Virus record (IMG/VR): IMGVR_UViG_3300017648_000011
Location: 1-30,939 of that record
DNA length: 30,939 nucleotides
Direction: 5' to 3' (one strand)
Source: a virus
Taxonomy: Duplodnaviria > Caudoviricetes
Program-made: the position numbers and the translations under genes
Part shown: positions 4,274 through 20,483 of the stretch, in pieces
Layout: each line of letters starts with the position of its first letter
How positions within the stretch are numbered: position 1 is the stretch's first letter
The notes under the pieces: generated by a model
What the model was told of the DNA's origin: nothing
What the model saw: the letters and a program-made list of their open reading frames with translations, nothing else
Databases searched by the model: none

Positions 4274-4556
4274 CAATGTGGCCGCCCTGCGGCAGATGTA
4301 CGAGGACTCAACAACGGACAGTGACCGCTCGTGGGTTCACCGTGGCTGTGTGCTGTTTTCCGGTCGGCGATGTATTGAGGTCGGAACCATATTCACGCAA
4401 GAGGATGCCGACCTGATCGTCGCGATGCACGAGGCGCTACCGGCGCTGCTGGATGCGGTGGAGGCTGCGCGACGGGTCGCAAACCCTGACAGCACGTTGA
4501 GCGACCTGTACATGTTGCGGGACAAACTCGCGGCGCTGAAACAGGACGGTGCCTAA
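4266..4556 (+). CDS. Hypothetical protein, weakly Ead/Ea22-like
   Basis: GAGGTG RBS. DADLIVAMHEALPALLDAVE resembles the Ea22-type helix motif (recalled, not searched). Confidence 0.6.
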   Translation: MTDNVAALRQMYEDSTTDSDRSWVHRGCVLFSGRRCIEVGTIFTQEDADLIVAMHEALPALLDAVEAARRVANPDSTLSDLYMLRDKLAALKQDGA

Positions 4557-5065
4557 TGCCACTGATCACCATCTGCGACGGCTGCGGCGAGGAGATCGAG
4601 GGCGGCGTCACCCAGGGGCGCTACGAGCTGGAGATACCGACCGGCGATGAGTGGTGGGCCTCGGAGCGCCTGACGTTCCACGGGCGCGGCTGTCTGGCTC
4701 TGTGGGTGGATCGCACCGACCCGGACGGCACGTTCTGCCCACAGTGCGCGCCGGATGCGCTACCACCTGGCGCAGACTCACCGACGCCGGTCAGCGATGG
4801 CCACCACGCGCTGCGATTCGCCACTCATGATCAGCGGATGCAATACATCGACAGCCTGTTCGATAAATGCCCGCGTCCCGCGCATTTCCAACCGATCATC
4901 GACGGCCACAAGGTCCCGGCCGATGTGCGGATCATTGAGGTGATGTGTGGAGAGGATGGCTGGGCGATTGCAGAAATGCGGGACGAATTCTGCGATGTAC
5001 ACCACGTGAACCTGCTGCGGGTGAACCGCGGCAACGTGAGCGTCGAGATGATCGAGCCGTCATGA
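4556..5065 (+). CDS. Hypothetical protein with possible zinc ligands
   Basis: TAATG coupling to the upstream gene; CDGC, HxxxC and CPQC motifs. Confidence 0.7.
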   Translation: MPLITICDGCGEEIEGGVTQGRYELEIPTGDEWWASERLTFHGRGCLALWVDRTDPDGTFCPQCAPDALPPGADSPTPVSDGHHALRFATHDQRMQYIDSLFDKCPRPAHFQPIIDGHKVPADVRIIEVMCGEDGWAIAEMRDEFCDVHHVNLLRVNRGNVSVEMIEPS

Positions 5066-5154
5066 GACATCCGCTCAGTGACCGTGGACCGCCGTCTGGT
5101 ACCTCGGAATTCTGGATCCCGGAAGCCGTGAATCATTACCTGACAGGAGTACCG

Positions 5155-5493
5155 ATGAAGCGCTTTCTGACCGCCCTGATCGTCGCCGTCATGCTGGCCG
5201 GAGTTGTCGCCGTCCCGGCGATGGCTGCGCCGACGGATCCCGAGCCGTGCGTTGCCGGCGTCGAGATCCACGAGTTCACCGATAGTGTGACCGGCAACAG
5301 GATCGAGGTCACCACGACCACGACGTGCCTGGACGCCACCACGATCGACAACATCACCTACGAGTACCGGACTGTCGCGGTGTGGAGAAGCTCGAACCGT
5401 GGTGGGCATCTCGTGCCAGTCGAGGATATTCAGCCAGCCGGACCGTGGCAGCGTCCGTGTGGACCTGCGCGCGCTGCGGACGTGTGCCGCTAA
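5155..5493 (+). CDS. Small secreted protein
   Basis: AGGAG RBS; signal peptide MKRFLTALIVAVMLAGVVAVPAMA-A; four Cys in the mature part. Confidence 0.8.
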   Translation: MKRFLTALIVAVMLAGVVAVPAMAAPTDPEPCVAGVEIHEFTDSVTGNRIEVTTTTTCLDATTIDNITYEYRTVAVWRSSNRGGHLVPVEDIQPAGPWQRPCGPARAADVCR

Positions 5494-5514
5494 CGAGTTG
5501 ACCGACTGAGGCCA

Positions 5515-5543
5515 GAGAGCGGCGCAGGGGATACGCCGCTCTC
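5515..5543 (+). terminator. 10-bp GC-rich hairpin without a U tract (terminator or RNA-stabilising element)
   Basis: GAGAGCGGCG-9 nt-CGCCGCTCTC in an intergenic gap. Confidence 0.5.
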
Positions 5544-5562
5544 ACGATCGCGAGGAGCACAG

Positions 5563-5772
5563 ATGGCAGACGCCGACAGCACTGAGCGCGAGACGGTGAC
5601 GAGCACAGCGGCCATGCACTCGCCGGCGACGCGGCCGGAGTTCACTGAGTGGCGCTGCTACCGCTGCCGGCGTCTGCTGGCACTGATCGCGATTGACGGT
5701 GGGACGATCGAGCAGAAGTGCCGTGGGTGCGGAACCGTCAATGTCATAACCGTTGTTGAACGATCACGGTAG
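5563..5772 (+). CDS. Mu Com-family zinc-finger protein
   Basis: GAGGAG RBS; EWRCYRCRRLLA...IEQKCRGCGTVN matches the Com pattern RCxxCxxLL...IExKCxxCGxxN. Confidence 0.8.
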   Translation: MADADSTERETVTSTAAMHSPATRPEFTEWRCYRCRRLLALIAIDGGTIEQKCRGCGTVNVITVVERSR

Positions 5773-5798
5773 ACGTAAGCCGCTAGACCCGCTACACT
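5770..5798 (+). promoter_or_regulatory. Putative sigma70-type late promoter
   Basis: TAGACG (5770-5775), 17-bp spacer, TACACT (5793-5798), directly upstream of the packaging operon. Confidence 0.6.
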
Positions 5799-5824
5799 AC
5801 TCATAACGAAATAGACAGGGCTTC

Positions 5825-5868
5825 AAGCCCGGCAGTCGTGACAGACGTCACGGCGGCCGGGCTTTTTG
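5825..5868 (+). terminator. Intrinsic terminator in the late-operon leader
   Basis: AAGCCCGGC-a-GTCGTGAC-agac-GTCACGGC-g-GCCGGGCTT followed by TTTG: a long stem with a T run at 5863-5867. Confidence 0.8.
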
Positions 5869-5884
5869 TATTGCCGAGGAGATC

Positions 5885-6307
5885 ATGCCCACTCGACCGC
5901 CCCGTCCGTGCCGACACCCTGGCTGCCCGCGCCTGACATCGGGCGGCTACTGCATGGAGCACGCACAGGGATCGGCACGGACAGGGCGGTCGAGTGCACA
6001 TCAACGCGGCTACACGTCCGAGTGGCGACGCATCCGGCGTCAGGTGCTCGACACATTCCCGCTCTGCCGCCTGTGTGGCGCTCGCGCGACTGAGGTCGAT
6101 CACATCACACCGCTGCGACTCGGCGGAACACACGATCTGGCGAACCTGCAGCCGCTGTGCGCCTCGTGTCACCGCAAGAAGACAAGTCGACAGATGGATT
6201 TGCGAATTTTTTTTCGCGAGGGCGGGTCAAAAGTCTGCGAAAAACAGGCCCCCGGAGACCCGCGGCCACCCATTTTTTCGCGTCCGCGAAATGGCAGTGA
6301 TTTTTAG
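5885..6307 (+). CDS. Terminase-associated HNH endonuclease (HK97 gp74-like)
   Basis: GAGGAG RBS; PCRHPGC..YCMEH, RGY..W, CRLC..EVDHI.P...GG....NLQPLCASCHRKKT; lies directly before TerS. Confidence 0.92.
   Translation: MPTRPPRPCRHPGCPRLTSGGYCMEHAQGSARTGRSSAHQRGYTSEWRRIRRQVLDTFPLCRLCGARATEVDHITPLRLGGTHDLANLQPLCASCHRKKTSRQMDLRIFFREGGSKVCEKQAPGDPRPPIFSRPRNGSDF
6200..6305. other. Probable cos/packaging initiation region
   Basis: A/T runs unusual for this genome, GAGGGCGGGTCAAAAGTCTG, and repeated TTTCGC/GCGAAA motifs between the HNH core and terS, the usual cos position in HK97-like phages. Confidence 0.6.
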
Positions 6308-15925: not shown

Positions 15926-16258
15926 ATGACAACAGCACGGAAGGCCGCAGGGCCAGTCACGATCCAGGTCGATCTATCGGAACTGGCCAGTTTGACCGGG
16001 CGGGAAATCCGGGATTTCGAGCGGGTGCAGCCGGTCAAACTATCGAACCTCGGCAAAGTTTCGGAGTCCGGTGAGATTCCGGTCGACACGATCTACGGGC
16101 TCGCGTGGGTGTTCCACCGCCGCGAGAACCCCGGCGTGTCATTCGATGACGTGCTCGACATCCCGTTCCGCAACATCGAACTGGTCGGCGCGGAGGTCGT
16201 GGAGAGTGACGACGTCCCTACCGCAGAGCCGGACGGCGCGACGCCGACTGGCTCCTGA
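15926..16258 (+). CDS. Tail assembly chaperone (gpG-like)
   Basis: AGGAGAGG RBS; acidic 110 aa; lies between the tube and tape measure genes. Confidence 0.8.
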   Translation: MTTARKAAGPVTIQVDLSELASLTGREIRDFERVQPVKLSNLGKVSESGEIPVDTIYGLAWVFHRRENPGVSFDDVLDIPFRNIELVGAEVVESDDVPTAEPDGATPTGS

Positions 16259-16419
16259 GTGAGATGCCAGCGCTGGTCAAGTTCTACGGGCTGTCCCCGA
16301 TTGAGATTCGCGACCTGCGCTACGACGAACTACAGGTGCTGATCCAGTTCCGTGACGCGGTTCACAAAGAAGAGCAGAAGCGCGCGCGAAAACAGCGCAC
16401 AGGGCCACGGAGGCGCTAA
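16210..16419 (+). CDS. Tail assembly chaperone extension (gpT-like), probably reached by -1 frameshift; absent from the ORF track
   Basis: The -1 frame is open 16210-16419: ..PYRRAGRRDADWLLSEMPALVKFYGLSPIEIRDLRYDELQVL..RRR*. An internal ATG is present at 16264. Confidence 0.75.
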   Translation, partial: RRPYRRAGRRDADWLLSEMPALVKFYGLSPIEIRDLRYDELQVLIQFRDAVHKEEQKRARKQRTGPRRR

Positions 16420-16422
16420 CCG

Positions 16423-16441
16423 ATGGCAGGCGGACGAACGG
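16423..16441 (+). pseudogene. Orphaned original 5' end of the tape measure gene (MAGGRT)
   Basis: GGAGG RBS at 16409-16413, then ATG GCA GGC GGA CGA ACG G, encoding the same peptide as 17085-17102. Confidence 0.75.
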
Positions 16442-17084
16442 GACAACTGAAATCATGCGATGGCTTTTCGCCTACGCCGTTTTGCTCGAGCGTAGCAGTT
16501 CGTGCAGAGGCCCTTGCCTTTGTGCCGCTGTTCCGTCGTCCCGCATTCCGTGCATCGTTCGTAGTCCAGCGACCAATCGTAGTACGGGCGCTCGGGCATT
16601 TTTTCAGATCGATGCTTTGCGCGGTTATAGCAGGAATTGCAGAGGCCAAACGCGGCGTGCCTCCGATCAGACCGCCCGCACTCTTTGCATGCATCAAAGT
16701 CGCGAGACCATCGCTCGATAGCGAGTGCGGGCGGTCCGTCTCCACCAGAGTTCCGGTTGAAGAGATCAGCTCCGAGCGACTCGTAACGTCTGATCCACCA
16801 CGATTCGCGCTCTCCCCAATCAACGCTGACGGGGACGCTCTCCAGGATGCACATGATGGGCCGCTGCCCGGAGTTGACAAGCGATGCGACCCATTCCTTC
16901 AGCCCGTGATGAGCGCGCGCTTTCGGAGCGCAATGGACGCTCAATCTCCGCATCGGGTTGACGGTCGCGCCGACGTAACGAACTGCACCTGTGCGCGGAT
17001 CTGCCAAAGAGTAGATGTGCCGTTGTTTTTCCATTGTCGTACTCCTTATTCGGAGATTATATCTCCTAGAATCTGGATCGCGTA
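16442..17084 (-). mobile_element. Free-standing homing endonuclease-like cassette inserted in the tape measure 5' end
   Basis: Only antisense gene inside the structural operon; flanked by duplicated MAGGRT coding sequence; visibly more AT-rich than its neighbours. Confidence 0.7.
16453..17034 (-). CDS. GIY-YIG endonuclease with two C-terminal C4 zinc-finger repeats
   Basis: AAGGAG RBS; HIYSL.DPR...RYVG.T....RR...H, E..WI, N...GGDG; then two copies of WS.D...CxxCG.....H...GLCxxCY.RAK. Confidence 0.9.
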   Translation of the reverse strand: MEKQRHIYSLADPRTGAVRYVGATVNPMRRLSVHCAPKARAHHGLKEWVASLVNSGQRPIMCILESVPVSVDWGERESWWIRRYESLGADLFNRNSGGDGPPALAIERWSRDFDACKECGRSDRRHAAFGLCNSCYNRAKHRSEKMPERPYYDWSLDYERCTECGTTEQRHKGKGLCTNCYARAKRRRRKAIA

Positions 17085-17085
17085 A
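17052..17085 (-). promoter_or_regulatory. Putative promoter/operator of the GIY-YIG gene
   Basis: Perfect TATAAT on the - strand (17061-17056) inside the palindrome GGAGAT-tat-ATCTCC (17052-17066); -35 is weak; the spacer matches tape measure 17109-17126. Confidence 0.6.
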
Positions 17086-20000
17086 TGGCCGGTGGGCGTA
17101 CAGTTCGTATCCAGATTCTCGGAGATGCCAAAGGCGCGCAGGGCGCGTTTGGGCAGGTCGAGTCTGCGGCCGGATCGTTCGCGTCCAAAATCGGGACGGT
17201 CGCGAAGGGCGTCGCCATCGGCATCGGCGCGATCGGCGTCGCCGCAGGCGCGATGGCCGTCACCGGCATCAAGGCGGCCTCGGACTATGAGGAGTCGTGG
17301 AACAAGGTCGGCGAGGTTTTTGGTCAGAACGCTGGCCAGATTCAGGACTGGTCCAAAAATGCGGCGCAGTCGTTCGGCCTGAGCCAGAGCGAGGCGCTGG
17401 CGGCGACCGGGACGTTCGGCAACCTGTTTACCGCGATGGGGATCGGGAGCGGCGCTGCGGCCGACATGTCGACCGACATCGTCGGGCTGGCTGCTGACCT
17501 CGGATCATTCAACAACATCGGCACCGATGAGGCGTTGGAGAAAATCCGCGCAGGACTGGTTGGCGAGACGGAGCCGCTGCGCTCGCTGGGTGTCAATCTC
17601 GACGCCGCCTCGATCGCCGCGAAGGCGATGTCGATGGGCCTGGCCGACGCGAGCGGGGAGCTGACGCCAGCCGCGAAGGCGCAGGCAGCGTACGCGCTGA
17701 TTCTGGAGCAGACGACGACTGCGCAGGGCGATTTTGCGCGGACCAAGAGCGGCATGGCGAACTCGCTGAAGATCATCGGGGCGAGCTTCGACGATCTCAA
17801 GGTCAACATCGGGCAGAGATTGCTCCCGGCGATCGCGCCGCTGATCTCGTCGTTCGCGTCGGCGATGCCGCGGGCGCTGGACATGGCGAGCAGTGGGCTC
17901 GACTGGCTGACAGCGCGGCTCCGTGGGCCGATTATCTCGGCCTTCCATCTGATTCGCGATGGCGTGCTGACGTTCATTCAGGCGCTCTCGGGCAACTGGG
18001 CCGATAACGAGAACATCCGCGGCTTCCATCGCGTGATCGGCAATGTCGCACTGGTTATTCGCGAGCAGGTCATTCCCGCGGTACAGCAGATGGTCGCATT
18101 TTTCAGCGGTACCGTGATTCCCGCAATCCAGACGGTTATCGGCATCGTCGGGCAGGTGTCGGCGGCGTTCGGCGAGGGTGGGTTCGCCGGCGTGCTGGCG
18201 ATGCTGGCCGAACGGCTGGGGCCGATCGGTGCGCAGCTGGCGACGTGGGCCGGTCAGGTGTTGACCACGCTGGTCAATCAGATCGGGCAATGGGCCGGGG
18301 CGTTCCTGGACTGGATCGCTCCGATGATCCCGCCGCTGCTGGTCGAGTTGGGCAAAATCGCGTTGGCGCTCGGGACGTGGATGTATGGCACGGCGCTCCC
18401 GGCGATCCTCGCGCAACTCGCGACGTGGGGGCAGGCGCTGGTCGACTGGATCGGGCCGCGCATCGCGCCGATGCTGACGGCGCTCGGGGGGCTGTTATCG
18501 CAGCTGGGCGCATGGCTGCTGAACACCGCATTGCCCGCGATTGTCGAGAAGGTCGGCGAGTGGGGCAGCGCGTTCATCGCGTGGATCGGGCCTCGCATCG
18601 GCCCGATGCTGGCTGAGTTGGGCGGTTTGCTGTCGCAACTCGGCGGCTGGCTGATTGACACGGCTCTGCCGGAGATCGCGGCGAAAGTTTCCGAGTGGGG
18701 CGCAGCGTTCATTGCGTGGGTGGGGCCACAGATCCCGCCGCTCCTGAGCGCGCTGGGCGGGCTGCTCGGCGATCTCGGCAACTGGATCGTCAGTACCGCA
18801 TTGCCGGAGATCACGAGCAAGTTGGCCGAATGGGGCAGCGCTTTCCTCAACTGGGTTGCGACAGATGTGTTGCCGCAGTTGCCTGGCAAGCTGGCCGAGA
18901 TCGGGACGGCCGTCACCGGCTTCATCCTGACGAAGGCCGGCGAATTGGGGACGGCGCTGCTGGGTTGGGCAACCAAGTTCCTGGTCTGGATTGCCAACGA
19001 TGTGTTGCCGCAGTTGCCGGGCAAGCTGGCCGAGATCCTGACGTCCATCGCGGGATGGGTCACCGACTCGCTCGGGTCACTGGCGAGTGAGGGCGGTCGC
19101 ATTGGCCTGTCCATCCTGGAGGGCATCGCGTCCGGCATCCGCGATAGTGCGGCCAGCATCGTCGGCTCGGCGATCGATTTCGTAACCGGGCTGCTGCCGG
19201 AGTGGGTCAAGAAGGGCTTGAAAATCGGCTCACCGTCGAAGGTCATGCACGACGAGGTCGGTATCCCCATCTCGCAGGGCATCGCGACCGGCATGATGGC
19301 TGGCGCTGGATCGATCAAGCTCGCATGGGACTGGCTGTTCGGCGGCATCATGGCTGACGCAAAGGACTACGCCAAACAGGTCGGCTCGGCATTCGAGGGT
19401 CTGTTCGGCTCGATCAGCGATCTCGCGTCCGGCACCTCGATCAAAAACGCGCAGGCGGAGCTGGACCGGCTGCTGACCATCCGGCAGATCGCGATCGACA
19501 CCGGCGCGGGTGAGGCGGCGGTGGCGGGCATTGATGCGCAGATCGCTGAGCAGCAGAACCGCGTCCAGGCGATCGGTGCTGCGATGGGAACCGACATCGT
19601 GCGCGGCATCACCGATCAGATGCAGTCCGCCGATCTGGCCGCGTCGCTGGCGGAGTCGGTATCGGCTGCATGGTCAGCGTCGCTGGGCAACCTCGACAGC
19701 ATCCTGTCCGGCGAACGGATCGGTGCGCTACAGGACACGCTACGTGGGCTGGAACAGCAGCTCGCGCTGGCGCTGGTGGGCGGCGCTCCTGAGGATGTTG
19801 TCAAGGGCATCCGGGAGAACATCGCGGCGGTGCAGCGCGAACTGGGCGCGTCGCAGCAGATCTACGACGACGCGATGAATGCCGGGCTGATCGACACGTC
19901 GGTGTTCCAGATGCCGCTCGACAAGATCGCCGAATTACTGCCGCAGATGCAGGACGGCGGGCTGTCGATGATCGACGAGCTGGTCAGGGGCGTCGCGGAC

Positions 20001-20483
20001 GGCTCCGCTTCCCTCGGCGGCGCGATGGCGACGATTCAGGGCATCGTGGCCGCCGGTTCCGACAAATTGCCGGAGACGATCGGTGCCTCTGTATTCGAGG
20101 TGATCGACGTCCTCAAAGACCTCGATAAGTCGCTGACGGTCGATCTGGCACAGGCGTTCGCGACTGGTGATGAGGCGGCGGAAGGCATTCAGCAAAACCT
20201 GGCGATCGTCGCGTCCCTGCTGGGCGATCTGCAGGCGCAGGCCGACGCGACCGCGAAGAGCATCAAGGGCGTGAACGCGGTTACGGGGCAGAAAATCGTG
20301 CGGCCGGACGGTCGCAGTGCCGACAGCGGCGGGAGCGGGTTCGAGTCAGCGGGCGGATCCGGCGGCGGTGGGACGCGAATCGGCGGGCAAACCGTGCTGA
20401 TGATGCCGGACGCGACGCCGCTGCTGACCTGGTATGCGTACGAATCCACGCAGTCCGAGGCGCTCTGGCCGGTGACTGGATGA
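17085..20483 (+). CDS. Tape measure protein
   Basis: 1132 aa, Ala/Gly/Leu-rich and helical; ASDYEES..KV..VFG, AADLGSFNN, GETEPLRSLG, LKIGSPSKV; Trp-periodic repeats. Confidence 0.96.
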   Translation: MAGGRTVRIQILGDAKGAQGAFGQVESAAGSFASKIGTVAKGVAIGIGAIGVAAGAMAVTGIKAASDYEESWNKVGEVFGQNAGQIQDWSKNAAQSFGLSQSEALAATGTFGNLFTAMGIGSGAAADMSTDIVGLAADLGSFNNIGTDEALEKIRAGLVGETEPLRSLGVNLDAASIAAKAMSMGLADASGELTPAAKAQAAYALILEQTTTAQGDFARTKSGMANSLKIIGASFDDLKVNIGQRLLPAIAPLISSFASAMPRALDMASSGLDWLTARLRGPIISAFHLIRDGVLTFIQALSGNWADNENIRGFHRVIGNVALVIREQVIPAVQQMVAFFSGTVIPAIQTVIGIVGQVSAAFGEGGFAGVLAMLAERLGPIGAQLATWAGQVLTTLVNQIGQWAGAFLDWIAPMIPPLLVELGKIALALGTWMYGTALPAILAQLATWGQALVDWIGPRIAPMLTALGGLLSQLGAWLLNTALPAIVEKVGEWGSAFIAWIGPRIGPMLAELGGLLSQLGGWLIDTALPEIAAKVSEWGAAFIAWVGPQIPPLLSALGGLLGDLGNWIVSTALPEITSKLAEWGSAFLNWVATDVLPQLPGKLAEIGTAVTGFILTKAGELGTALLGWATKFLVWIANDVLPQLPGKLAEILTSIAGWVTDSLGSLASEGGRIGLSILEGIASGIRDSAASIVGSAIDFVTGLLPEWVKKGLKIGSPSKVMHDEVGIPISQGIATGMMAGAGSIKLAWDWLFGGIMADAKDYAKQVGSAFEGLFGSISDLASGTSIKNAQAELDRLLTIRQIAIDTGAGEAAVAGIDAQIAEQQNRVQAIGAAMGTDIVRGITDQMQSADLAASLAESVSAAWSASLGNLDSILSGERIGALQDTLRGLEQQLALALVGGAPEDVVKGIRENIAAVQRELGASQQIYDDAMNAGLIDTSVFQMPLDKIAELLPQMQDGGLSMIDELVRGVADGSASLGGAMATIQGIVAAGSDKLPETIGASVFEVIDVLKDLDKSLTVDLAQAFATGDEAAEGIQQNLAIVASLLGDLQAQADATAKSIKGVNAVTGQKIVRPDGRSADSGGSGFESAGGSGGGGTRIGGQTVLMMPDATPLLTWYAYESTQSEALWPVTG
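18291..19100 (+). repeat. About six tandem 135-bp (45-aa) repeats in the tape measure gene
   Basis: Trp codons start units at 18291, 18426, 18561, 18696 and 18831; near-identical DVLPQLPGKLAEI coding at 18864 and 18999. Confidence 0.9.

Follow-up and report, generated by a model that had tools for sequence, protein, structure and literature searches.

A backwards nuclease cassette in a phage tape measure gene and a stop-free reverse frame that may bridge ribosomes to a recoded start

How can a phage keep making its tape measure protein when a nuclease gene has been placed backwards behind the sixth codon of the tape measure gene? This question is raised by the window analysed here, a stretch of 30,939 nucleotides of phage DNA (IMG/VR record IMGVR_UViG_3300017648_000011). 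The terminase of this phage reaches about 41% to its best matches. The parts of the locus that concern the tape measure gene and its two starts are the following.

16264..16419, plus strand: small ORF, from its position between the tail tube and tape measure genes likely the second part of the tail assembly chaperone region
16409..16413, plus strand: Shine-Dalgarno (SD) GGAGG of the original tape measure start, -9.5 kcal/mol (anti-SD duplex)
16423..16441, plus strand: original tape measure start, codons 1-6 and one base, host-derived according to the empty alleles in runs X7 and X16
16423..17085, plus strand: bridge ORF of 220 codons, codon-aligned antisense to the nuclease gene, no internal stop
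16442..17108: mobile cassette, 667 nt by the joint in run X7, right end 17102-17108
17083..17087, plus strand: TAATG stop/start overlap, bridge TAA 17083-17085 and tape measure ATG 17085-17087
17085..17108, plus strand: recoded start from the cassette, 8 codons, by comparison with 16423-16441 and the X7 allele
17085..20483, plus strand: tape measure protein gene, 1132 aa (PHROG 1535, E 2.7e-28; PHROG 5493; PHROG 58)

The small ORF, which had no match in Pfam and PHROG searches, stops 3 nt ahead of the old tape measure start, whose ATG lies 9 nt from GGAGG. A sequence-only reading of this DNA had taken position 16423 for the original start, and the empty alleles bear this out, since in both of them it is continuous in frame with the tape measure body. 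The recoded start differs from the old copy at the third base of each of codons 2-6, and its SD score is -3.1 as compared to -9.5 at the old start (anti-SD duplex), in line with the earlier description of a strong ribosome-binding site at the old ATG and no convincing one at the new. Among 29 hand-listed starts of this phage, every one of the ten whose distance to the preceding stop is 8 nt or more has an SD at least as strong as -6.1, and the 11 other weak-SD starts all overlap an upstream ORF or lie at most 5 nt from one. A terminator scan of 16200-17400 found none.

The evidence for mobility comes from public sequencing runs in the form of assembled contigs. Empty sites are joined at 16441>17109 in the DNA run X7, where the empty form thus exists as DNA, and at 16440>17103 in the RNA library X16; the right end of the cassette is uncertain (17102-17108) because the duplicated codons blur the boundary. 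In run X11 there is 1 difference in the 667-nt cassette against 15 in 331 flank bases (P 6e-7), and in run X6 a single contig spans the cassette with one of its eight differences inside it. Near-identical cassettes in diverged flanks point to homing. With a cognate empty allele (X7, X16) and the same cassette in diverged backgrounds (X11, X6), as for a GIY-YIG homing endonuclease, the nuclease cassette is likely a selfish, self-spreading homing element. The gene that it carries and its predicted control region lie on the minus strand.

16453..17034, minus strand: GIY-YIG endonuclease gene, 193 aa (Pfam PF01541, E 5e-5, above the cut-off)
17042..17047, minus strand: SD AAGGAG of the nuclease gene, -8.8 kcal/mol, 7 nt from its ATG
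17056..17061, minus strand: perfect TATAAT read from the sequence, predicted -10 box of the nuclease promoter
17080..17085, minus strand: weak -35-like hexamer, 18 nt before TATAAT, overlapping the bridge stop

The nuclease has eight close relatives, and across 30 relatives Y8, Y20, G22, R30, E77 and N93 are invariant; the conserved Tyr, Arg, Glu and Asn of the GIY-YIG domain are what we take to be its catalytic residues. The match to the I-TevI catalytic domain 1mk0 is weak (E 0.049), and two Cys-rich repeats at the C-terminus are predicted DNA-binding zinc modules. A consensus promoter scan did not report the TATAAT, because the -35 hexamer is weak, and reported no plus-strand promoter either. 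Four other antisense nucleases described below (L130, L134, L135, L137) have TAAAAT at a comparable place; the -35-like hexamer recurs identically in L134 and as a one-base variant in L130, there 17 nt before TAAAAT. The bridge TAA is part of this hexamer on the other strand, which gives a second reason for a TAA at that position. In the RNA run X15 (one study, contigs) an identical contig covers 16423-17039 and ends near the predicted nuclease transcript start; it was given no weight as evidence.

The sequence-only reading had claimed that the frame of the old ATG stays open through the whole antisense gene and ends on a TAA overlapping the new ATG. Recomputation gave the same frame, 220 aa without an internal stop, whereas the other two plus frames across the region contain 10 and 8 stops. 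The arrangement is that of a coupled pair, an upstream ORF with its own initiation site and a stop overlapping the tape measure start. Gene callers already annotate the bridge as a 220-aa hypothetical protein. A functional bridge protein was rejected, there being no Pfam, PHROG or Atlas support (best 0.82, recognition 971) and no homolog outside its own cluster. Three amino-acid variants within this cluster all fall at third positions of nuclease codons, as expected with an unconstrained bridge peptide, and the peptide indeed appears to be unconstrained.

Taken alone, the open frame at this locus is weak evidence (P about 0.01-0.28); the caveat attached to it earlier was that such aligned antisense frames are often open by chance in GC-rich DNA. 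The chance of an open frame across the nuclease gene is 0.23-0.28 under phage codon use, 0.01-0.03 when codon use is shifted towards the A-rich third positions of the nuclease, and 0.05-0.08 against 116 other endonuclease genes with overdispersion allowed; among windows of 194 codons taken from the genes of this phage, 28% have an open aligned antisense frame. GTA, CCA and ATA are likewise absent from the nuclease gene. Given an open frame, the exact -1 overlap has a P of 0.067 (100,000 leader shuffles), and a stop falls within 20 nt of the start in 27% of shuffles. This cassette's frame is only moderately unlikely by chance, because no close homologous cassette DNA was found: viral, genome and metagenome contigs, scanned with single proteins and with profiles, returned the window's own contig (L064) and otherwise distant zinc-module or GIY-YIG proteins, and these scans may have missed loci with the zinc module. 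GenBank phages gave five distant matches, and none of the 57 tape measure loci examined contained a GIY-YIG gene.

The sequence-only reading had proposed to look for avoidance of TTA, CTA and TCA, the codons that read as stops on the reverse strand. We counted them in endonuclease genes lying antisense within operons of viral contigs and in 116 other endonuclease genes, and avoidance was found in four of six other antisense cases, these being distant relatives or other families, not homologous cassettes. After removal of duplicates 75 of 80 HNH loci and 43 of 54 GIY-YIG loci were distinct, and a heuristic gave a clear sense call for 40 of the 75 HNH loci. Zero-stop loci judged sense from their neighbours (L079, L081, L109, L113, L115, L189, L206, L207) were kept as controls, as was zero-stop L121 of ambiguous orientation; L102, L108, L125 and L127 lie at divergent boundaries, L154 and L181 at convergent ones. 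The orientation call was not blind, L088/L130 and L137 having been noticed with stop counts visible.

The four positive genes, one GIY-YIG and three HNH-AP2, contain none of the three codons, with 4-14 expected in each: 0 of 43 opportunities in L130 (14.1 expected at GC3 0.41 over 364 codons), 0 of 18 in L134 (4.6 expected), 0 of 16 in L135 (5.4) and 0 of 15 in L137 (4.3), the last three at GC3 0.40-0.47. The product of their P values is between 1e-12 (GC3 model) and 5e-7 (most lenient model), for loci that are not fully independent, since the same site and cassette ends occur in L130 and L134, which also belong, with L135, to a single phage group. The HNH proteins are 43-46% identical to each other. 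Controls were open in 9 of 116 cases overall and in 1 of 77 at GC3 below 0.56 with at least 100 codons (Fisher, 4/4 vs 9/116, P 9e-5; 4/6 with the two failures counted, P 0.001). These failures are L175, antisense behind a portal gene, with 3 stops and its start lost at the contig end, and L200, an antisense nuclease with a small repressor gene, with 7 stops. Together with the present one there are five bridges. Each has an SD (-6.5 to -9.5) ahead of its start, which lies 3-18 nt past the preceding stop; relative to the start of the following gene they stop at -1, -1, -1, +1 and +14 nt, the last being L137, which falls 14 nt short. Start, nuclease frame and stop are in register in all five.

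The new tape measure start, itself predicted to be largely base-paired, is flanked by an inverted repeat.

17061..17078, minus strand: inverted copy of 17109-17126 (17/18), filling the -35/-10 spacer; predicted operator and 5' arm of the mRNA stem
17109..17126, plus strand: codons 9-14 of the host tape measure gene, 3' arm of the stem and putative binding half of the homing site

The repeat with its 30 nt between the arms had been described earlier as an 18-bp stem; it is there, with 17 of 18 positions paired. The fold is very stable (z = -3.9; none of 200 shuffles equally stable), and when the 2-kb region was triplet-shuffled 300 times, a comparable inverted repeat arose once. The 5' arm is a copy of the 18 host bases that begin exactly at the X7 junction, on its right side, and this look-alike of the homing site adjoins the predicted promoter's TATAAT at 17056-17061. 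An I-TevI-type operator, a near-copy of the homing site over a GIY-YIG promoter, has the same layout (15/20 there, 17/18 here; PMC2988022). I-TevI is intron-encoded, whereas the present nuclease is free-standing and its copy inverted, because the nuclease gene is antisense, so that in the mRNA the copy additionally gives rise to a stem covering the host start. The four distant cassettes, which carry other binding domains, all lack such a target copy. By this analogy we lean towards the 5' arm being a DNA operator through which the nuclease would repress its own antisense promoter, the RNA stem being a by-product.

Nearly as much weight goes to the arm having some other origin, as an RNA switch or an inversion scar. 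A switch making tape measure translation dependent on the bridge would suit the stability of the fold and the established RNA-unfolding model of coupling (PMC12548453), and is possible though on the doubtful side. That the arm is a scar left when an inversion created the cassette is doubtful; such an origin would likewise account for the fold, and for the single mismatch, which reads as a synonymous Leu codon, as expected of a fragment from another tape measure allele. Against both stand the exact start of the copy at the junction and its fit to the promoter spacer, as in the I-TevI operator, and the lack of a stem of this kind in all four other bridges. In addition, the cassette-bearing runs X4, X5, X6 and X11 have 17117 T>C, which disrupts one pair of the stem (-55.3 to -50.8 kcal/mol) and is not compensated elsewhere. 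The arm, which had been read as part of an RNA device, is more simply read as a DNA operator.

Our best explanation for the locus as a whole, with a probability of roughly 0.7, is that a backwards nuclease cassette brings a recoded start and that its stop-free frame is kept by selection, allowing ribosomes to cross and restart. Stop avoidance and endpoint placement in the other antisense nucleases suggest that the bridge was probably selected for being translated, through coupling as well as anti-polarity. Ribosomes would enter at the old SD and read through 220 codons, the peptide sequence being immaterial; this would cover 660 nt of late mRNA and prevent polarity on the downstream tail and lysis genes, and termination at TAATG would open the stem and let tape measure synthesis reinitiate. 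Coupling requires overlaps or very short gaps (PMC10666635), and reinitiation would matter here because the 18-nt target copy occupies the place at which related cassettes have an SD. Recoding would render the occupied allele uncuttable and reduce deletions between the two start copies. The earlier proposal that the bridge delivers ribosomes by melting the stem thus gains support beyond this window for the bridge, but stem melting is not the general reason, because none of the four other bridges has a stem and three (L130, L134, L135) precede genes with a strong SD (-10.2 to -10.3; -5.3 in L137), which have no need of reinitiation. Keeping the mRNA translated may be as important as ribosome delivery.

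It is unlikely that anti-polarity or mRNA stability alone selects the bridge, the new start being served independently, either through weak de novo initiation or through a transcript with a short leader driven by TAGAAT (17067-17072). Polarity from untranslated RNA is established (PMC12548453), and this explanation fits the strong downstream SDs, the short bridge of L137 and the mismatch of the inverted copy, which creates the TAGAAT on the plus strand. However, it has to rely on a start without SD that is predicted to be largely base-paired, and the promoter scan found nothing on the plus strand. Between this hexamer and the ATG there are 12 nt, more than a leaderless start would allow. Moreover, stops at -1 or +1 in four of five bridges are tighter than it needs (27% vs 6.7% of shuffles).

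Quite unlikely, too, is an open frame due to the chance of GC-rich genes, with the TAA placed as part of the nuclease -35 hexamer. The share of open windows in this phage, the 3 of 18 control GIY-YIG genes open at GC3 0.55-0.75, the recurrence of the hexamer at the L130 and L134 junctions, and the lack of a bridge in L175 and L200 all agree with it, but it leaves unexplained L130 with its 14 expected stops, L134, L135 and L137 at a GC3 where 1 of 77 controls is open, and the register in five of five. Removal or skipping at the RNA level restoring the old frame, by a self-splicing intron or a T4 gene 60-type bypass, is very improbable: nuclease-bearing introns are known in tape measure genes (PMC10448857) and the X16 joint skips 662 nt in frame in an RNA library, but X16 is, judging by its lack of cassette coverage, its own flank variants and the equally empty DNA run X7, from a cassette-free strain, Rfam gave no intron core (two chance-level matches only), an intron would make the second start superfluous, the insert is filled by an antisense gene, and a bypass, which involves a short coding gap, is countered by the lack of a stop following a take-off codon, by the frame open for 220 codons and by the gap of 662 nt.

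The preferred reading, a translated bridge to a recoded start, has partial counterparts in known systems. The free-standing GIY-YIG seg genes of T4 are likewise intronless nuclease genes in essential late operons, and segD is also antisense, between genes 23 and 24 (PMC2988022); here, in contrast, the insert interrupts the first codons of a gene and brings a new start with it. T4 also has the nrdA/mobE stop/start overlap and host promoters embedded in nuclease genes, but its coupling serves the nuclease itself, and the accessible text of that source does not mention a frame across an antisense nuclease for a host gene (PMC2988022). WHO elements in yeast FBA1 (10.64898/2026.08.13.744650) and mORF gene hybrids of fungal mitochondria (PMC3630166) carry a divergent copy of one gene end and restore the invaded gene without splicing, and a divergent copy of the displaced end is found here as well (17085-17108). 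However, those are eukaryotic or organellar elements that replace the 3' end and need no new initiation site, whereas here 8 codons are replaced at the 5' end of a phage gene, with an antisense insert and a bridge frame; the cassette works like these replacement-end elements but is not one of them. In the T4 gene 60 bypass/MobA cassette a mobile nuclease element also carries a translational device sparing the host gene (10.1101/2022.08.31.505936), but in that case a stop or hungry codon precedes a stretch of 50 nt that ribosomes skip, while here they would read 660 nt and reinitiate. Termination-reinitiation at -1/-4 overlaps (PMC10666635, PMC12548453) shares the -1 overlap, the weak SD and the structure over the start, and differs in that the upstream ORF here is the reverse strand of another gene with an apparently unconstrained product. 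Our literature search, with subscription journals mostly outside its scope, found neither antisense bridge frames nor recoded restarts in phages described.

For phages more widely, we regard it as reasonably probable that unrelated homing endonuclease families (GIY-YIG, HNH-AP2) repeatedly evolved backwards insertion free of TTA, CTA and TCA, with the reverse strand serving as a ribosome bridge. The bridge would then be an antisense ORF with complete overlap, selected for nothing but its translation, leading from a captured start to a supplied restart, and would constitute another harmless way into essential operons, beside introns, inteins, bypassing and split genes. If true, this would explain how antisense nucleases persist in phage late operons without polar damage, and it predicts a codon signature (no TTA, CTA, TCA) that could be surveyed across all phage genomes. 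The call of a bridge as a 220-aa hypothetical protein is a warning for annotation. Such bridges would be natural long antisense overlapping ORFs under measurable selection without a protein function, and may offer a route to de novo overlapping genes.

Our analysis confirmed that an antisense open frame, the bridge, connects the old and new starts of the tape measure gene. The phage contig (30.9 kb, GC about 65%) carries terminase, portal, protease, capsid, tail tube, tape measure and endolysin genes on its plus strand, and the bridge and the nuclease cassette sit between two small ORFs and the tape measure body:

15926-16258, plus strand, small ORF upstream of the tape measure gene
16264-16419, plus strand, second small ORF upstream of the tape measure gene
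17085-20483, plus strand, tape measure gene body (PHROG 1535, E 2.7e-28)

The second small ORF uses the -1 frame, which is also open ahead of the ORF's ATG, a start with a weak Shine-Dalgarno site (SD); we take the pair to resemble a tail-chaperone frameshift pair. A ParE/RelE-like toxin gene lies near the contig end (29818-30228, minus strand).

As the sequence-only reading had claimed, 220 codons are open from the ATG at 16423 to a TAA (17083-17085) overlapping the ATG at 17085, and the frame is the codon-aligned reverse of the 193-aa nuclease gene (16453-17034). GGAGG precedes the old start by 9 nt (anti-SD duplex -9.5 kcal/mol). The new start has no SD (its score is -3.1) and is mostly base-paired in the predicted fold. 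Among 29 starts of this phage, listed by hand so that some first-start choices may be wrong, all ten lying at least 8 nt from an upstream stop have SDs no weaker than -6.1, and the other weak-SD starts (11 of 11) touch or overlap an upstream ORF; minus the bridge, 17085 would be the sole SD-less start distant from a stop. Three variants change the bridge peptide, each at the third base of a nuclease codon (107, 12 and 2). The one at codon 107 was observed as DNA and leaves the nuclease protein unchanged; the one at codon 12 can only be synonymous there, and for codon 2 that is the simplest reading. A functional bridge protein was rejected, as was splicing or bypassing across the insert.

Comparison of the window with 8 of 24 listed public sequencing runs identified the cassette as an insertion. 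In X7 (DNA) 16441 is followed by five other letters and then 17109, and in X16, an RNA library with its own flank variants that leaves the cassette uncovered, 16440 is joined to 17103; across both joints the old ATG reads in frame into the tape measure body. The cassette occurs in other flanks in X4, X5, X6 and X11. Differences were counted in X11 and X6, with X4 and X5 left out: X11 has one in the cassette (9 bases uncovered) versus 15 in 331 flank bases (P 6e-7), and in X6, where a single contig spans the cassette, one of eight falls inside. X15 yielded an identical cassette piece, and X3 another together with a diverged contig ending at 16441, which suggests that this sample holds both alleles. 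It follows from these comparisons that 16423 is the original start and that the eight codons 17085-17108 arrived with the element; all third bases of codons 2-6 of this stretch are changed. The cassette probably spreads by homing, judging from sequence.

The cassette works like the free-standing nucleases of T4, of which segD is also antisense (PMC2988022), and like replacement-end elements of yeasts (10.64898/2026.08.13.744650) and fungal mitochondria (PMC3630166), of which it is not a member. The MobA bypass cassette (10.1101/2022.08.31.505936) is closest in spirit, and in the tape measure gene of ICP1 introns are the solution already known (PMC10448857). No account of an antisense bridge frame under selection turned up in search listings; the bridge is what is new, not the cassette or the operator.

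The nuclease combines a GIY-YIG domain with two Cys-rich repeats, a build shared by 8 close relatives. HNH proteins and others carry this repeat too (loci L060, L061, L068-L075); it has no Pfam match and is a mobile, apparently unnamed module that probably binds DNA.

At this locus alone the open frame exceeds chance only moderately. Its probability is 0.23-0.28 from the phage's own genes and 0.01-0.03 when shifted to the nuclease's A-rich third positions; GTA, CCA and ATA are likewise missing from the nuclease gene. Given an open frame, the exact stop/start overlap arises in 6.7% of shuffles.

Since no close homologous cassette DNA was found among the contigs searched, distant relatives were collected, namely 54 GIY-YIG loci (43 distinct) and the best 80 of 482 HNH-AP2 loci (75 distinct). 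L130 (= L088) carries a 364-codon GIY-YIG gene of third-position GC (GC3) 0.41, antisense within an operon and without TTA, CTA or TCA; in reverse, the frame is open over 390 codons, starting at a GTG with an SD before it and ending in a TAATG on the next gene. A query with that downstream gene returned seven loci, L130 included, of which L131, L132, L135 and L136 have no insert before it. L134 has a different antisense nuclease (HNH-AP2) there, with a 202-codon bridge to TAATG, and in L133 a sense LAGLIDADG-like gene overlaps the gene's start. One gene further on, at a site empty in the other six loci, L135 holds another antisense HNH-AP2 gene, whose 186-codon bridge stops 1 nt before the next ATG; L137 is the fourth other case. 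The avoidance of TTA, CTA and TCA that the sequence-only reading proposed to look for in homologous endonuclease genes was seen in distant relatives: L130, L134, L135 and L137 have zero antisense stops, versus 14.1, 4.6, 5.4 and 4.3 expected from a model fitted on 116 controls, with a joint P of 1e-12 to 5e-7, by model. Control orientation was assigned by a heuristic, with PHROG checks of doubtful loci; 9 of 116 controls have an open antisense frame, and 1 of 77 at GC3 < 0.56. Three of the four (L130, L134, L135) belong to one phage group; L130 and L137 were noticed with stop counts visible, L134 and L135 through the neighbour-gene search, which was blind to stops. Two antisense nucleases have no bridge: that of L175, which follows a portal gene and is truncated at the contig end, has 3 stops, and that of L200, part of a two-gene island, has 7; counted as failures, they leave 4 of 6 against the controls (P 0.001). 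All five bridges, the window's included, have an SD before their start and share register with the nuclease, and they end -1, -1, -1, +1 and +14 nt relative to the next start.

Several side observations concern these loci. One gene start (about 2501, L130-L136) has received three inserts, antisense GIY-YIG-AP2 (L130), antisense HNH-AP2 (L134) and sense LAGLIDADG-like (L133); cassette ends common to L130 and L134 suggest that nuclease domains were swapped within one cassette frame. Upstream of this gene, in L130 (1064-1319) and L131-L136, are runs of tiny, very basic Lys/Arg/His-rich ORFs, possibly DNA-condensing core proteins. In L135, about 7 nt separate TAAAAT from the nuclease ATG (4284-4305), so that the nuclease may be translated from leaderless mRNA; the same operon region holds what we take from its motifs to be a TnpB-like gene (5016-6065), and the homolog of a 427-aa gene cannot be read through in one frame. 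The portal gene of L175 overlaps the 3' end of the antisense HNH gene by about 100 nt (480-580).

The 18-bp stem claimed around the new start (17061-17078/17109-17126) stood as an inverted repeat, with 17 of 18 positions pairing (fold z -3.9; found in 1 of 300 shuffles). Its 5' arm overlaps a predicted nuclease promoter:

17085-17080, minus strand, weak -35-like hexamer in the nuclease leader
17061-17056, minus strand, perfect TATAAT, predicted -10 box, 18 nt after the hexamer

A consensus promoter scan did not call this promoter; the nuclease SD is 7 nt upstream of its ATG. In L130 and L134 an identical or almost identical hexamer precedes TAAAAT by 17 nt, with the restart's SD in the spacer. 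The window's spacer is a 17/18 copy of host bases starting at the X7 junction. A 15/20 copy of its homing site, lying over its promoter, lets I-TevI repress its own expression (PMC2988022), and a DNA operator of this kind is, by a modest preference, our reading of the inverted copy. Because the nuclease gene is antisense, such a target copy necessarily forms an inverted repeat and an mRNA stem. An RNA switch would use the stem itself, which folds well; it is absent from the four other bridges, and the variant 17117 T>C, present in four runs that carry the cassette, disrupts one of its pairs without compensation, and we consider a switch unlikely. A scar of the inversion that gave rise to the cassette is slightly less probable still. 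The lone mismatch creates a TAG stop 18 nt ahead of the new ATG, in frame with the tape measure gene, and also a plus-strand TAGAAT hexamer (17067-17072). A second, 8-nt direct copy of the target-arm end and a small GGAGAT/ATCTCC palindrome with the predicted -10 box at its centre (both 17050-17066) are a possible second operator half-site.

We put the probability that the bridge functions as a translated frame at roughly 0.7. One review covers polarity on RNA that is not translated as well as both models of coupling (PMC12548453), and coupling declines within about 20 nt (PMC10666635). Since the downstream genes in L130, L134 and L135 have strong SDs, what bridges offer in general is likely unbroken translation through the insert, and coupling would come in addition. 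In this phage, with its new start SD-less and mostly paired, the tape measure protein most likely arises by reinitiation at TAATG: ribosomes finishing the bridge would restart at 17085 and make it.
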